DNA of 64,000 nt from Ruminococcus sp. (lineage in GTDB: Bacteria > Bacillota > Clostridia > Oscillospirales > Ruminococcaceae), in assembly GCA_015066665.1 (NCBI GenBank), contig SVNX01000003.1, positions 39,074-103,073 of the forward strand, given 5' to 3'. The notes below the pieces were generated by a model, which did not search any database, had not been told where the DNA came from, and worked only from the letters and a program-made list of their open reading frames with translations. The position numbers were made by a program, and so were the translations under genes. Below, piece after piece: positions 932 through 5,977 of the stretch; position 1 is the stretch's first letter, and each line of letters starts with the position of its first letter.

Positions 932-961
932 AAAGCCCTCCCATGCGGGAGGGCTTTTTTT
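932..961. terminator. Rho-independent terminator hairpin after pilT, shared with the convergent minus-strand ORF
   Basis: aaagccctccc-atgc-gggagggcttt followed by a T-run. Confidence 0.8.
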
Positions 962-1820
962 ACGCAGTCGGTGCGATAATGGGAAATCCCACAGTTTCGA
1001 GCAGATAGACCGGATCCTGCATCTGCGCTGTCGTCAGTCCCAGACGATTTGTGCCTGTCAGGTTCACCGTCAGCGATGTGTCGAGCAGATTCGTATCCAC
1101 AATGCAGACTTCTTCCGCATTTGCCGTCAGATCGACCGTGCCCGTGCCCGTGACCGCCATTGCCGTGACGGTGTTCCTGTCCTGCGGTGCGCCGGAGAGC
1201 ACAAGCGTCCCGCCATCCAGCCGCAGTGCCCCCGTCAGCAGGCAGTCCTGCAGGCAGGTCAGGGTGTTCGGCGTGATGATGGAAACCGGTGCCCTGCCCT
1301 CGAGGTGAATGTGACAGTTTGTCATCTGCTGGTTGGACAGCACCGCATGTGTGCTGCTGCCCCAGAGCTGCAGGTGCATGCCGCAGCGGTTGAATGTGCC
1401 GCCCGCCGTCAGGACTGAGCGGAAGAGCGTCGCATCGTTCAGCATCAGCCCGGAAAAGCTGCAGTCCTCGAAATGGAACGAGCCGTAGAACACACGCTCC
1501 TGCATGCCGATGACATTGCGAAAGTGCAGATTCTTGCAGAGCCGCTTCACATTATCCGGATGGAAGGTGATATAATATCCGTTCTTGGCAACGTAATTGC
1601 GGATCTCCCAGCCGCTGCCGTCCACATAGGCATAGATGTTGAGGCTGCTCTTCATGCCGCCGCGGTCTTCGGTGTCGTTGAGGTCGATGACCTTGTTCTC
1701 CGCATTGGGGTCGAGCACCACATAGCAGTTGCGGTAGGTGCTGTAGTACTTGAAATCCTCCCAGGTGTCGACGATATACGGGTCGGTCTGCGTACCCGAG
1801 CCGGAATGTGCCATATGCAT
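960..1820 (-). CDS. Hypothetical protein, possibly a beta-helix-like repeat protein
   Basis: Long ORF with coding-like composition. The start was chosen after the AAAGGGGA RBS (MHMAHSGSGTQTDPYIV...). No signal peptide or catalytic motif was recognised. Confidence 0.5.
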   Translation of the reverse strand: MHMAHSGSGTQTDPYIVDTWEDFKYYSTYRNCYVVLDPNAENKVIDLNDTEDRGGMKSSLNIYAYVDGSGWEIRNYVAKNGYYITFHPDNVKRLCKNLHFRNVIGMQERVFYGSFHFEDCSFSGLMLNDATLFRSVLTAGGTFNRCGMHLQLWGSSTHAVLSNQQMTNCHIHLEGRAPVSIITPNTLTCLQDCLLTGALRLDGGTLVLSGAPQDRNTVTAMAVTGTGTVDLTANAEEVCIVDTNLLDTSLTVNLTGTNRLGLTTAQMQDPVYLLETVGFPIIAPTA

Positions 1821-1894
1821 TTCCCCTTTCGTTGTTTTGGAAAGCAGTGCTTTCACTTTACGCATAAAAAGGGGAGAAGTTGTACATACTCATA

Positions 1895-1930
1895 CAACAA
1901 AAAGAAAACGCCTCCGGAATGGAGGCGTTT
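1895..1930 (-). terminator. Rho-independent terminator for the minus-strand pilin gene
   Basis: Hairpin aaacgcctcc-ggaa-tggaggcgttt with a U-run on the minus strand. It lies 35 nt beyond the stop at 1965 of the extended pilin frame. Confidence 0.7.
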
Positions 1931-2045
1931 TGAGTGTTTTGTTTAGAAATAAACTTCAGTTCACTTACGGAGTGGTTTTGTAGCCAGTAGCAGCTGCTGT
2001 CAGAGCAGCACCAGATGTTGTCATAGTGGCAGACTGATCTTCAGG

Positions 2046-2453
2046 TCATGCATTGGGATTAGTACCGCAGTACTTACCATCGAATACGGCAGTAGCCTTG
2101 ATTGCAGTACCATTTGTATCAATCTCATAAGCAGCCCAGCCGCTCTTCTTACCGAACTGATCTACGCCATCAAAGTACTTCTTAACCTTGGCATCAAAAT
2201 CCTTGTTGCCCTTACCCCATTCCTTCTGACCATAATCAGCTGCTACCATGGGCTTACCCTCAGCGTCCATCTCAGTCAGAGCGGTAGCGCAAGCGTTCAT
2301 CATGGTCTTCGCATTGGAGTTTGCAGAAGCAACCTTGGACTTCTTAACATAACCCAGCATGGAAGGCACCAGAATAGCTGCCAGTACGCCGATGATTGCG
2401 ATTACAACGATCAGCTCAACGAGTGTGAAACCCTTCATCTTTCTTGTTTTCAT
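2046..2453 (-). CDS. Type IV pilin (prepilin-type N-terminal cleavage/methylation domain), copy 1
   Basis: MKTRKMKG|FTLVELIVVIAIIGVLAAILVP is a class III signal peptide with G-F cleavage and Glu+5. An AGGAGG RBS is present. The ORF ends at a TGA where the paralog has Cys. Confidence 0.85.
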   Translation of the reverse strand: MKTRKMKGFTLVELIVVIAIIGVLAAILVPSMLGYVKKSKVASANSNAKTMMNACATALTEMDAEGKPMVAADYGQKEWGKGNKDFDAKVKKYFDGVDQFGKKSGWAAYEIDTNGTAIKATAVFDGKYCGTNPNA

Positions 2454-2479
2454 AATGAAAACCTCCTTAAATAAATAAT
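2256..2479. repeat. Inverted repeat, left arm (pilin 5' CDS plus RBS)
   Basis: Its reverse complement matches 3855..4078, with 3 mismatches seen in the 198-nt coding part and identity over 26 nt upstream of the ATG. Confidence 0.9.
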
Positions 2480-3424
2480 TTAAGGAGATGCCATCAGTTC
2501 CACCGCCCGCCGCTTCTGCTCCATCTGCGGGTGGACATAGAGATGCAGTGTCAGATTGACATTGGCATGGCCAAGCAGCTCGCTCACCGTCTTGTAGTCG
2601 GCCCCATGCTCGATCAGCCTTGTTGCAAATGTGTGCCGCAGACCGTGGAACGTGATGTGCCCAAGCCCAAGCTCCCGCAGCAGCCGGTCATAGCTCTCCC
2701 GATAGGTACGGGGTTCGGTGTATTTCCGTGAACCTGTGAGTACATAGGCCTCGGGGTCGGGGACACGCATCTCCTCAAGAATCGGGAAAATCATCGAGGA
2801 CAGCGGTATCGTCCTGCGGGATGTGCGGGATTTGGGCGGGGTGATGATGACCCGTGTCTCACCGCTGCCGTCCCCGTGCGGCTCGTAAATGCGCTGAATT
2901 GTGCGGCTGACCGTCAGCGTCCGTTCGGAAAAGTCGATGTCCTTCCACTGCAGTGCGCACAGCTCACCGATGCGCAGTCCCGTGTGCAGGCAGAGCAGCA
3001 CCCCCATCCGCCGCGGCGTCGGATGCTGTAGAATGTACTCCGTGAGCACCTGCTGCTGTTCCTGCGAAAAGACCCGCAGCCGTTCATGCGGGTCGGATTT
3101 CGGGTACCGGATTTCAAGCGGCATGGGCGCAGTGTATCCCGCCCGTGCGGCGGATTTCAGACTCATCCGGATAATGGCCACAAGTCCCCGCACCGTCCGT
3201 TCCGACAGTCCGCCCCGACCGTCACGCCGTCCGGCGGTGAGCCATGCCAGCACCGTCTCCTGAAGACGCTCCTCCGTGACCTCAGAAACGGGCAGCCCGC
3301 CGAGCTGCGGTACAATGTGATTGGTCACCGCCGTGCTGTATCCCGCAAGAGTCGCTTCCTTGACAAATCCCTCCCGCTGTGCAAGCCAGCCGGAGAGCCA
3401 GTCCTTGTACAGAATTGCTTTCAT
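2480..3424 (-). CDS. Tyrosine site-specific recombinase/integrase
   Basis: Catalytic motifs TGLRIGEL (Arg), HGLRHTFATRL (H-x-x-R) and LLGHANVNLTLHLYVH (His/Tyr). Start taken at MKAILYKDWL after the GAAAGGA RBS; the ORF is open up to 3484. Confidence 0.85.
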   Translation of the reverse strand: MKAILYKDWLSGWLAQREGFVKEATLAGYSTAVTNHIVPQLGGLPVSEVTEERLQETVLAWLTAGRRDGRGGLSERTVRGLVAIIRMSLKSAARAGYTAPMPLEIRYPKSDPHERLRVFSQEQQQVLTEYILQHPTPRRMGVLLCLHTGLRIGELCALQWKDIDFSERTLTVSRTIQRIYEPHGDGSGETRVIITPPKSRTSRRTIPLSSMIFPILEEMRVPDPEAYVLTGSRKYTEPRTYRESYDRLLRELGLGHITFHGLRHTFATRLIEHGADYKTVSELLGHANVNLTLHLYVHPQMEQKRRAVELMASP

Positions 3425-3741
3425 TTGCATCCATCCTTTCTTATTATATGTATCCATCTTATCGCATCTTTTCCGGATGCGCAAATGGTTCGCATCCTAT
3501 TTTCTACGGTTTGGAATATTCATAATTACATGTACGAAATGTGAACAGCTCATTTTGAAAAAATCGCCGGAATTTCTATGGAAAGTTCAAATATCAGCCA
3601 TAATTCAACGGAACGCACGCCTTAAACCGTGCATTTGTTCGTTTTCTTTGTTGATTTTGACGGAAAAAGGGTCTACTTAAACGATTTAAATTTCGTAAAC
3701 GTAAAAAACTGTTCATAATTTATTTTTTTTACGGAAAACTA

Positions 3742-3770
3742 TTGACAAAAGATTAGACATATGCTATACT
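3742..3770 (+). promoter_or_regulatory. Sigma-70 type promoter directed into pilin copy 2
   Basis: TTGACA, 17-nt spacer, TATACT, about 110 nt upstream of the ATG at 3881. Confidence 0.65.
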
Positions 3771-3854
3771 TAGTACATAAGGAACACACCAGACCGATAA
3801 TAGATGGTGTGGTCCGGAGAAGGGGGACGGGTTACCTGTTCCGACTACAATTAT

Positions 3855-4078
3855 ATTATTTATTTAAGGAGGTTTTCATTATGAAAACAAGAAAGATGAA
3901 GGGTTTCACACTCGTTGAGCTGATCGTTGTAATCGCAATCATCGGCGTACTGGCAGCTATTCTGGTGCCTTCCATGCTGGGCTATGTTAAGAAGTCCAAG
4001 GTTGCTTCTGCAAACTCCAATGCGAAGACCCTGATGAACGCTTGCGCTACTGCTCTGACTGAGATGGACGCTGAGGGT
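3855..4078. repeat. Inverted repeat, right arm (pilin 5' CDS plus RBS)
   Basis: Matches the reverse complement of 2256..2479. Confidence 0.9.
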
Positions 4079-4366
4079 CTGACTCTGGACGTTACTGCTG
4101 GTGCTGTTGTTACTTACAGTACATCCACTGACACAGATACAATGAATGGTAAGATTGCTAAGTACTTTGATGGCGTTGATTCCTTCACAGGTACTAATCA
4201 GTTCGCTGCTTATCAGATCAGCTCTGATGGTACTGCAATTGAGGGTTGTGCAGTTCGTGATGGTAAGTACACAGGTACAAACCCCCACGCTTGCCCCGAG
4301 GATAAGTCTGCTGGTCTGTCCACAGCTGCTGATGCAGTTGGAAAGGCTATCTCCGGCTCCTTCTAA
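3881..4366 (+). CDS. Type IV pilin, copy 2 (promoter-proximal in this orientation)
   Basis: Its first 66 residues match copy 1 except for one substitution. The C-terminal part is divergent and has two Cys (GCAVRDGKYTGTNPHAC). True start is MKTRKMKGF after the AGGAGG RBS, not the tracked start at 3761. Confidence 0.85.
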   Translation: MKTRKMKGFTLVELIVVIAIIGVLAAILVPSMLGYVKKSKVASANSNAKTLMNACATALTEMDAEGLTLDVTAGAVVTYSTSTDTDTMNGKIAKYFDGVDSFTGTNQFAAYQISSDGTAIEGCAVRDGKYTGTNPHACPEDKSAGLSTAADAVGKAISGSF

Positions 4367-4386
4367 GAATCACTTATGTGAACACA

Positions 4387-4416
4387 AAGACCTCCCATAT
4401 CGGGAGGTCTTTTTTT
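4387..4416 (+). terminator. Rho-independent terminator after pilin copy 2
   Basis: aagacctccc-atatc-gggaggtctt followed by a T-run. Confidence 0.8.
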
Positions 4417-4561
4417 ACATGTCTTTTGCAGTATTTTGCACAAATTTCTGCCAATCCCTTGCAATTGCCTGTGAAGTATGCTATAATGTAAGTATCACTT
4501 TGCCCGATTAAAACGGGCAGGCGAGAATCAATGAACGTTTCACCGTGAAAGGAGATCCATT

Positions 4562-5977
4562 ATGGGACTGATTAAAGCAGGTCTGGCCGCTGTCGGCGGC
4601 ACTCTGGGCGATGCCTGGAAGGAATTTTTCTACTGTGACGCCATCGATAAGGATGTGCTCGTGCTCAAGGCAAAGAAGCGTACAAACGGCAAATCCTCCA
4701 ATACAAAGGGCAATGACAACATCATCACCACCGGAAGCGGCATCGCTGTTGCGGACGGCCAGTGCATGATCATTGTCGATCAGGGTCAGGTTGTGGAAAT
4801 CTGTGCCGTGCCCGGTGAGTATACATACGATATGTCCACAGAGGCAAGCGTTTTCTCCGGCAGCCTCGGCTCCGGTATTGTTGAGACCTTCAAGACCATG
4901 GGCAGACGCCTTGCCTATGGCGGCGACACCGGCAAGGATCAGCGCATCTACTTCTTCAACACCAAGGAGCTGATGGGCAATATGTTCGGCACCCAGAACC
5001 CCGTGCCCTTCCGTGTGGTTGACAAGAACATCGGCCTCGATATCGACATCACCGTTCGCTGCAATGGTACTTATTCCTATAAGATCACAGACCCCATGCT
5101 GTTCTATGCCAATGTATGCGGCAACGTATCCGGCGAGTTCAGAAGAAGCGAGATCGACGCACAGCTCAAGAGCGAGTTCCGCAATGCGCTGCAGCCGGCC
5201 TTCGCCAAGATTTCTGAAATGGGCATCCGCTACAGTGCTCTGCCCGGCCATACCATGGAGCTGACCGATGCCCTCAACGAGGTGCTCTCTCCCAAGTGGG
5301 CTGAGACCAGAGGTCTGAGTCTGGTATCCGTTGCCATCAACTCCATCACTGCCCCCAAGGAAGACGAGGACATGATCAAGCAGGCACAGCGTCTGGCCCT
5401 GAACCGCAATCCCGGCATGGCTGCCGCAACCATGGTTGAGGCACAGGCTGCCGCAATGAAGGCAGCGGCCAGCAACAGCGGCGGAGCCATGATGGGCTTC
5501 ATGGGCCTGAACATGGCGCAGCAGCAGGGCGGTATGAGCGCACAGAATCTCTTTGCCATGGATCAGCAGCAGCAGATGATGCAGCAGCAGATGATGCAGC
5601 AGCAGCCTGCCGCACCGGCAGCCAATACATGGAAGTGCAGCTGCGGTACAGACAACACCGGCAAGTTCTGCATGAACTGCGCATCCCCCAAGCCCGCTCC
5701 GGCCGGCCAGTGGACCTGCCAGTGCGGCACTGTGAATTCCGGTAAGTTCTGCATGAACTGTGCATCTCCCAAGCCCGGTGCGCCTGCAGAAGGCTGGACA
5801 TGCCAGTGCGGCACGCTCAACACCGGCAAGTTCTGCATGAACTGCGCATCCCCCAAGCCCGCCGGTGCACCCCTGTACCGCTGCGACAAGTGCGGCTGGG
5901 AACCCGCCGACCCGAAGAATCCGCCCAAGTTCTGTCCGGAATGCGGCGATGTATTCGATGAGGCAGACATCAAGTAA
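4562..5977 (+). CDS. SPFH-domain (YdjI / 'virion core protein'-like) protein with C-terminal zinc-ribbon repeats
   Basis: N-terminus MGLIKAGLAAVGGTLGDAWKEFFYCD, a Q/M-rich linker, three W-x-C-x-C-G-x5-KFCMNC-ASPKP units and one C-x2-C...C-x2-C ribbon. Confidence 0.6.
   Translation: MGLIKAGLAAVGGTLGDAWKEFFYCDAIDKDVLVLKAKKRTNGKSSNTKGNDNIITTGSGIAVADGQCMIIVDQGQVVEICAVPGEYTYDMSTEASVFSGSLGSGIVETFKTMGRRLAYGGDTGKDQRIYFFNTKELMGNMFGTQNPVPFRVVDKNIGLDIDITVRCNGTYSYKITDPMLFYANVCGNVSGEFRRSEIDAQLKSEFRNALQPAFAKISEMGIRYSALPGHTMELTDALNEVLSPKWAETRGLSLVSVAINSITAPKEDEDMIKQAQRLALNRNPGMAAATMVEAQAAAMKAAASNSGGAMMGFMGLNMAQQQGGMSAQNLFAMDQQQQMMQQQMMQQQPAAPAANTWKCSCGTDNTGKFCMNCASPKPAPAGQWTCQCGTVNSGKFCMNCASPKPGAPAEGWTCQCGTLNTGKFCMNCASPKPAGAPLYRCDKCGWEPADPKNPPKFCPECGDVFDEADIK
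5627..5875 (+). repeat. Three in-frame tandem ~83-bp units encoding zinc-ribbon modules
   Basis: WKCSCGTDNTGKFCMNCASPKP / WTCQCGTVNSGKFCMNCASPKP / WTCQCGTLNTGKFCMNCASPKP. Confidence 0.85.

Follow-up and report, generated by a model that had tools for sequence, protein, structure and literature searches.

A probable self-inverting expression cassette for alternative type IV pilins in a Ruminococcus species

In several described systems, inversion of a DNA segment decides which variant of a surface protein is made. In the Piv system of Moraxella bovis and Moraxella lacunata and in the Rci shufflon (PilV) of R64, the promoter and the 5' end of the gene are constant and inversion affects 3' segments; Piv belongs to the DEDD/IS110-type enzymes, and Rci acts at 19-bp sfx sites on a conjugative plasmid. 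The Hin switch of Salmonella relies on a serine recombinase, 26-bp hix sites and Fis, and combines ON/OFF control with a repressor. The vpma, vsp and vsa loci of mycoplasmas encode lipoproteins of Mollicutes, with recombination sites of ~20-35 bp and the recombinase gene beside the cassettes. In the sapA locus of Campylobacter fetus, a 6.2-kb promoter segment reportedly inverts in a RecA-dependent manner, without a dedicated site-specific recombinase. For the 'epigenetic invertons' of hsdS genes, which concern Type I restriction-modification specificity, inversion has been demonstrated by experiment (Huang et al. 2020, PMC7672463). Here, we analyze a locus in a 64,000-nucleotide (nt) stretch of Ruminococcus sp. 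(GCA_015066665.1, contig SVNX01000003.1, positions 39,074-103,073 of the forward strand), referred to below as the window, in which two divergently oriented type IV pilin genes flank a tyrosine recombinase gene and a predicted promoter. We consider it likely, with a probability of roughly 0.75, that the major type IV pilin is expressed here from a self-contained invertible cassette, whose flip chooses the pilin. The coordinates of all features are collected in Table 1.

An invertible expression cassette is expected to carry inverted repeats on both sides of the segment that moves. A repeat finder identified two inverted arms of 228 nt that are 98% complementary and separated by a spacer of 1367 nt; apart from this pair at the pilin genes, no inverted repeat stands out within the first 9 kb of the window. 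Neither a further copy of the repeat nor a further pilin gene was found in the 64-kb window. Alignment of both pilin genes reveals four mismatches between the arms, three of them coding and one in the leader (2479/3855), and identity is exact over 126 nt (2353-2478/3856-3981). The 1367-bp segment between the arms (2484-3850) holds the tyrosine recombinase gene at one end and the promoter and leader at the other. Thus, inverted repeats flank a segment containing a promoter, which is predicted from sequence, and a dedicated site-specific recombinase is encoded inside that segment. Most of this anatomy had been described in an earlier note on the same DNA. Its three coding mismatches are correct, although its 224-nt arms end just before the leader mismatch and the full arms measure 228 nt. 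The segment does contain the complete tyrosine recombinase gene that it reported, whose TAA stop (2480-2482) sits just at the left arm's inner edge. The promoter that it placed in front of pilin 2 proves to be the best site between 1800 and 4600, and the pilin C-termini that it called divergent share 35% amino acid (aa) identity from residue 67 on.

The same arrangement recurs in related species. A scan of species-representative genomes yielded recombinase orthologues from Oscillospiraceae and 'Ruminococcus' metagenome-assembled genomes (MAGs), with 55-61% identity, that have divergent pilin genes on either side in L028-L034 and L038 (our numbers for the sequences compared) and likewise in L216. 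The module is common to at least nine Oscillospiraceae/Ruminococcus species. Aligned 5' inverted repeats of 150-970 nt with 82-98% identity are present in seven of the eight genomes L028-L034 and L038; L031 offers the promoter-side pilin only, its downstream arm being unresolved, and arms are alignable in eight genomes when L216 is included. All eight species checked have an identical promoter, TTGACA-17(TG)-TATACT, at a distance of 108-123 nt 5' of the ATG of the promoter-side pilin.

If the repeats serve recombination, the arms are expected to resemble each other in ways that the encoded protein does not require. Across the eight alignable genomes, arm-to-arm identity starts abruptly at about -27 relative to the ATG, is 100% at -15 to +14, and then declines gradually until it is lost beyond about +195. 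The sharp inner boundary at about -27 is seen in all species. The leader from -30 to -1 is 87-100% identical between the arms within a genome, compared with 52-59% between species. The coding part of the repeat is also conserved between species, as expected for a pilin assembly helix, but the identity of the leader arms is not explicable by protein-coding constraint because this stretch is non-coding. These observations suggest that the leader co-evolves between the arms, which is what a recombination site requires. A candidate recombinase core, GTTTTC-N5-6-GAAAAC, was found over the start codon as a self-complementary match within the -15 to +14 stretch; the two half-sites are kept in all species, and the spacer between them varies. 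As for orientation relative to the flanks across species, the flanks are not conserved except for one gene next to pilin 1 (hyp301, described below), which has the same orientation in L032.

Some relatives carry extra pilin cassettes, with two per side in L029, a second one downstream of the recombinase in L038 and three in total in L216. The order in L216 (1016-4672) is pilin152(+), pilin147(-), promoter-recombinase(+) and pilin185(+), with no differences among the three 5' repeats between about -25 and +97. A contig from a different sample (L218, MEGAHIT k141) has pilin152 after the recombinase, and beyond it a pilin C-terminus in convergent orientation. This layout is the one expected from L216 after two inversions at the repeats. 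The sister-species cassettes are thus a shufflon-like expansion of the module.

The recombinase itself was compared with known protein families. It scores 105 bits against PF00589 (cut-off 27), its second match, PF14659, corresponds to an N-terminal SAM-like domain, and the catalytic series R..K..HxxR..H..Y can be read in the motifs LRIGE, PPKSR, HGLRHT, LGHANV and LYVH. The exact protein is found on 15 contigs. No curated family claims it: the FimB/FimE models (NF007370/NF007371) give 26-28 bits against cut-offs of ~221, the Xer equivalog models give at best 82.6 bits, for XerA (cut-off 220), and 70 for XerC (cut-off 335), and it falls far below the cut-offs of integron models. The relatives are more informative. 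Recombinases with 55-56% identity (L036, L037), as well as a large clade with 42-48% identity from Bacilli and other phyla (L039-L060), lie between inverted hsdS genes that have common N-termini and nested inverted repeats and whose identity as Methylase_S genes was confirmed. Neighbour-joining groups the pilin-associated recombinases in one clade with L036/L037 as its sister, and both are nested among the hsdS enzymes; the tree has no support values, and L035 and L038 are misplaced in it, probably as a result of open reading frame extraction. By this kinship in sequence, the recombinase belongs to a lineage of putative invertases rather than phage integrases. A shared core motif was sought by comparing the pilin repeat with the hsdS repeat (45 nt) of L036, and no convincing similarity emerged. 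Neither hsdM nor hsdR adjoins the pilin locus, where the flanking genes are prepilins.

Relatives with other neighbours were also observed. A recombinase with 51% identity (P0095, found in 138 indexed blocks of the collection) is flanked by inverted copies of a 1.38-kb sequence that are 88% identical (L206, 1996-6217). These copies encode a 355-aa multi-pass membrane protein and an 87-aa protein, both without a Pfam match, and L212 has the entire unit in the opposite orientation to that seen between the flanks of the other contigs. Such membrane-protein loci may represent a third target class of the invertase lineage. Distant relatives with 31-34% identity adjoin prepilin-type genes in two Bacilli MAGs (L096, 1-555; L101, 6108-7811), accompanied in L096 by a 33-nt flanking inverted repeat, and the association with pilins may have arisen more than once.

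For a flip to choose the pilin, only one of the two copies is expected to be expressed at a time. On the promoter side, the block immediately 5' of the promoter contains near-identical motifs in eight species by visual comparison and is possibly a regulator-binding site or an UP element. The leader downstream of the promoter (3777-3850), also conserved in eight species, may act as a cis-regulatory RNA; by eye its hairpin covaries, reading CACAG/CTGTG in L034. The Clostridioides difficile pilA1 gene carries a cyclic di-GMP (c-di-GMP) riboswitch in its 5' untranslated region. When 1800-4700 was searched with Rfam for riboswitches or leaders, for example of the c-di-GMP type, no match at E<=1 fell in 3425-3880. 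The MAFFT-aligned leaders yielded no usable consensus with RNAalifold, so the leader hairpins are those recognized by eye.

On the recombinase side, the pilin is preceded by a different structure. An anti-Shine-Dalgarno element, CUCCUUA, lies 13-15 nt 5' of UAAGGAGG, before the pilin behind the recombinase gene. In the window, the hairpin that it would form has a folding energy of -16.7 kcal/mol, compared with -1.5 kcal/mol for the promoter-side leader, and it was flagged as terminator-like. Seven of nine species have a recombinase-side hairpin of -11 to -17 kcal/mol, and the values on the promoter side are mostly -1 to -6, with L028 as an exception (-10.3 kcal/mol). The stems vary between species in a compensating fashion (TTAAAT/ATTTAA versus TTAT/ATAA), and L216 has the hairpin on its silent third cassette as well. 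Its position 3' of the recombinase stop codon in some species indicates that the protein sequence does not dictate the hairpin. This conservation is consistent with a silencing role, in which the hairpin would close the ribosome-binding site of the pilin that is not in use.

Both flanking genes have the hallmarks of type IV pilins. Their products match the prepilin N-terminal methylation motif (N_methyl) and TIGR02532, with a class III signal peptide (G/FTLxE) and a hydrophobic N-terminal helix, and type IV pilus machinery is adjacent: PilT is located at 4-921, and PilB and a prepilin peptidase are found further left on a longer public contig (L011). Size and promoter strength suggest that the expressed product is a major pilin. 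Pilin 1 is truncated in this strain by a TGA (2046-2048) at a position where the alleles of other strains have Cys (NPNA-stop-PED, compared with NPNACPED in the L196 allele). Selenocysteine was considered as a reading of this TGA, but a nonsense mutation of the Cys codon is the simplest one. With read-through the protein would comprise 162 aa, the in-frame remainder ending at the stop at 1965-1967, and truncation costs the last 27 residues, likely including a disulfide partner. The TGA is identical in 13 same-strain contigs from different samples. In this strain, the switch may therefore act ON/OFF, a flip yielding the truncated pilin 1.

Strain comparisons indicate how the two copies evolve. 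Among strains with ~99% identical recombinase and flanks, the variable part of the promoter-side pilin has 68-100% aa identity, compared with 44-69% for that of the recombinase-side pilin (window 1965-2255 versus L196-L198, 3972 onward). The latter is a hotspot of strain-level diversity, with an intact reading frame in three of the four alleles. Diversification with a kept reading frame implies that the silent cassette is under selection and hence expressed at times.

In the mechanism that we propose, the recombinase would pair the two arms and exchange strands close to the inner end of each, at a point between positions -26 and +100 counted from the ATG; our best guess for the exact crossover site is the leader and start-codon region. 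The flip would place the other pilin body behind the sole strong pilin promoter and its structured leader. Whichever body faces the promoter would be transcribed and translated, and the one behind the recombinase gene would receive at most read-through RNA, in which the ribosome-binding site would be locked by the anti-Shine-Dalgarno hairpin. The expected outcome is a pair of mutually exclusive pilins that have a common N-terminal assembly helix and differ in the exposed C-terminal domain. The earlier note had already proposed that inversion moves one promoter between the pilin bodies, and this idea is strengthened by the conserved module, promoter and hairpin, by the hsdS-inverting relatives, by two flipped contigs (see below) and by L216/L218. 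It had also proposed that read-through from the recombinase gene is directed into the other pilin copy. The direction is right, but with the conserved anti-Shine-Dalgarno hairpin in front of it that copy is probably silent and not just expressed at a low level. Extending the proposal beyond the window, we lean towards the view, with less assurance than for the cassette itself, that a recombinase of the hsdS-inverting lineage and a promoter together form a portable self-flipping cassette, with a silencer for each unexpressed cassette, which would produce mutually exclusive major pilins in rumen and gut Oscillospiraceae/Ruminococcus and comprise three to four cassettes in some of them.

A functioning switch is expected to leave some genomes in the opposite orientation. 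Exact-protein look-ups provided ~25 junction-resolving contigs of the species, and two of these, L013 and L204, are flipped. In L013 (JGI 3300022660, 11.5 kb), the promoter end is joined to pilin 1, hyp301, PilT and PilB at 100% identity, and the repeat is chimeric, with the leader allele of the promoter side and the coding alleles of pilin 1. In L204 (Logan ERR15157002), from a strain whose recombinase is 99% identical, the recombinase 3' end is joined to pilin 2-like and SPFH genes, and the arm switches between the leader mismatch and +100. As evidence of inversion, L013 and L204 are suggestive, not conclusive. A scan of metagenome contigs with the recombinase returned, among the matches listed, only relatives of 35-55% identity and does not inform on orientation in the species. 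Many contigs end in the repeat at about 98-126 or at its inner edge, and most homologues are on contigs of 1.1-1.6 kb. Contig breaks were considered as a sign of mixed orientation, and this indicator was dropped because a collapsed 126-nt exact repeat gives the same result at k<127.

Several observations weigh against a programmed inversion. Nearly all of the ~25 contigs have the orientation of the window. The search for the flipped configuration that the earlier note had recommended did find two flipped contigs and a rearranged sister species, but both contigs switch within the 126-nt exact stretch, where de Bruijn assemblers can mis-join; L204 is especially weak because Logan assemblies presumably use k=31. 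The reciprocal flipped junction was not recovered from the sample of L013, in which L231 (3300022660) starts at window position 4310, short of the repeat. In addition, the recombinase-side hairpin is only weak in L033 and L034, the promoter scan found no strong promoter for the recombinase gene itself, and a repeat of 228 nt far exceeds what a tyrosine recombinase needs. Two of these points can also be read the other way, as the 126-nt stretch is equally the expected place of a real crossover near the inner repeat end, and the lack of a strong recombinase promoter fits a low switching rate and the orientation bias of the assemblies. The skeptical reading of the same data is that there is no programmed switch, and that paralogous pilins flank a resident, possibly decaying integrase in a fixed orientation, with pilin 2 expressed, pilin 1 decaying and the flipped contigs being artefacts. 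The one-sided orientation count, possible mis-joining in L013 and L204 and the fixed nonsense codon in pilin 1 of this strain would all agree with this. We nevertheless regard it as quite unlikely, since the module, its single promoter, the hairpin and an intact recombinase are conserved in at least nine species at 55-61% recombinase identity, the leader co-evolves between the arms, highly divergent silent alleles elsewhere keep their reading frames, and L216 and L218 are rearranged relative to each other at the repeats.

The length of the repeat raises the question of which enzyme would act on it, since homologous recombination could act on such a repeat too. RecA-dependent homologous recombination or gene conversion at the 5' repeats could produce the inversion, on the model of C. 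fetus sapA, with the recombinase dispensable or otherwise employed. Gene conversion would account for the gradual outward decay of arm identity and for the polymorphisms at -3 and +100, which are differently shared between the arms in the window strain, L196, L197 and L198 and indicate arm-to-arm conversion; L013 and L204, moreover, switch somewhere in 126 nt and not at a defined point. Recombination by RecA as the sole agent is nonetheless unlikely in our view, given that the recombinase is kept inside the segment with intact catalytic residues in every species examined, that the relatives of its clade all lie between inverted target genes, and that the inner repeat boundary is sharp and the non-coding leader identical between the arms. 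Another reading is that a mobile element or prophage has inserted between the pilin genes and that the recombinase is its integrase. Public records label the genes of this locus 'site-specific integrase' and 'type II secretion system protein', and the best solved structure for the recombinase, 6emy, which was deposited as 'Int protein' (E 8e-16), is one that we take to be the Tn1549 integrase. We rejected this explanation as very improbable: the repeats are inverted rather than direct, the pilin genes are undisrupted, the arrangement is syntenic across species, the window contains no tRNA, and the segment measures merely 1.37 kb and carries no further mobile-element genes. Overall, a recombinase-driven cassette that flips its own promoter between two pilins is the reading that we prefer.

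Table 1 Features of the pilin locus in window coordinates.
Feature	Position	Strand	Details
Bidirectional terminator hairpin 3' of pilin 1	1905..1931	-	
Pilin 1, currently silent copy	2046..2453	-	135 aa, N_methyl motif
Left arm of inverted repeat	2256..2483	-	~27-30 nt leader with Shine-Dalgarno sequence, and pilin 1 codons 1-66
Predicted anti-Shine-Dalgarno hairpin	2461..2489	-	Recombinase 3'-end CUCCUUAAAU pairs with pilin 1 ribosome-binding site AUUUAAGGAG; UUUUC after
Tyrosine recombinase, putative invertase	2480..3424	-	314 aa, PF00589 (E 4e-30) and PF14659
Conserved block upstream of promoter	3625..3741	+	TTTTGACG..AAACG.TTTA.A..CGTAAAA..GTTCAYAATTT..T-tract
Predicted promoter TTGACA-17(TG)-TATACT	3742..3770	+	11/12 consensus positions, TG extension; currently faces pilin 2
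5' untranslated leader, ~105 nt	3777..3880	+	UAAGGAA motif, hairpin CACACCA..UGGUGUG, then second variable hairpin
Right arm of inverted repeat	3851..4078	+	Leader with Shine-Dalgarno sequence, and pilin 2 codons 1-66
Candidate recombinase core, dyad over start codon	3872..3888	.	GTTTTCAT-T-ATGAAAAC; mirror copy 2446-2462
Pilin 2, currently behind promoter	3881..4366	+	161 aa, N_methyl motif; exact protein on 23 contigs
Pilin 2 intrinsic terminator	4386..4412	+	

Two neighbouring genes were also noted. Directly downstream of pilin 1, hyp301 (960-1865, minus strand) encodes a 301-aa protein without a Pfam or NCBIfam match. A homologue with 35% identity occupies the same position in L032, and hyp301 may for this reason be a pilus-associated protein. 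On the other side, the SPFH gene (4562-5977) contains three tandem repeats of 81-84 nt (5630-5862), each a CxxC..CxxC zinc-ribbon unit. The length of its product differs between contigs (416, 433, 470, 471 and 472 aa), which suggests variation in repeat copy number, and the gene is uncalled in several JGI records.

The closest mention of such a module in the literature searched is an 8.4-fold enrichment of 'Pilin' annotations among the predicted targets of programmed inversion, given without further details (Milman et al. 2023). Type IV pili have been reported as ruminococcal cellulose adhesins, and in adhesion-defective variants of R. albus and R. flavefaciens the defect is found alongside pilin loss (PMC3672088). 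If the proposed switch operates, a heritable and reversible pilin toggle would make populations of these abundant fibre degraders heterogeneous in adhesion, phage susceptibility or immune recognition. For Gram-positive commensals that degrade fibre, it would constitute a previously unrecognised system of antigenic or adhesive variation, and it could be the cause of the adhesion-defective variants that arise spontaneously in ruminococci and have been reported for a long time. In evolutionary terms, a lineage of restriction-modification specificity invertases would have been redeployed onto a surface filament, and the anti-Shine-Dalgarno lock would be a simple design for holding silent cassettes off. 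Pilin-switch loci fragment metagenome assemblies and bear generic labels, and recognition of the module would improve their annotation.

Compared with the described systems, the hsdS invertons (Huang et al. 2020, PMC7672463) are closest in their enzyme, as they supply the nearest recombinase relatives (42-56% identity, with sister-clade placement), and they likewise have the recombinase between inverted target genes, with 5' and internal repeats over the start codon (L051). They differ in their target, which is HsdS rather than a type IV pilin, and in their organization: hsdM is found upstream of the invertible unit and not within it (L051), which presumably leaves the promoter outside too, and coding segments are swapped. 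In the pilin cassette, by contrast, promoter and recombinase gene move together, and each flip would activate one whole gene body in place of the other. In this respect the pilin cassette is more like the 'promoter addition' of the mycoplasma vpma, vsp and vsa loci, where one promoter serves several surface-protein genes with mutually exclusive expression and a locus-encoded tyrosine recombinase acts on the conserved 5' region of each gene. The multi-cassette versions in L216, L029 and L038 resemble the mycoplasma layout further; the likeness to the systems of the mycoplasma recombinases Xer1 and HvsR is one of layout.

The remaining systems each share part of the design. C. fetus sapA likewise has an invertible promoter between opposed surface genes and uses long conserved 5' coding regions as repeats, although its products are S-layer proteins instead of pilins. 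In Salmonella Hin, too, the recombinase gene and a promoter lie inside the segment and orientation sets the surface filament protein, but Hin is not a toggle between genes that share 5' ends. The Piv system of M. bovis and M. lacunata and the R64 Rci shufflon combine a constant pilin N-terminus with C-terminal parts chosen by inversion, and the inversion between cassettes that we infer for L216 has this geometry. In the pilin cassette, unlike in Piv and Rci, the promoter cassette itself would invert, and the enzyme is of the hsdS-invertase lineage. It is a tyrosine recombinase, unlike Piv, and judged by layout the locus differs from the R64 shufflon in having two long 5' repeats only, with the promoter within the segment. 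Literature searches found no account of this pilin module in Firmicutes, and none of the families compared here fits all of its defining features. Thus, the module seems undescribed, yet its layout is less unusual than the earlier note had assumed: its parts are seen in Hin, in many hsdS invertons (such as L051) and in C. fetus sapA, and the logic of the switch is itself a familiar one.

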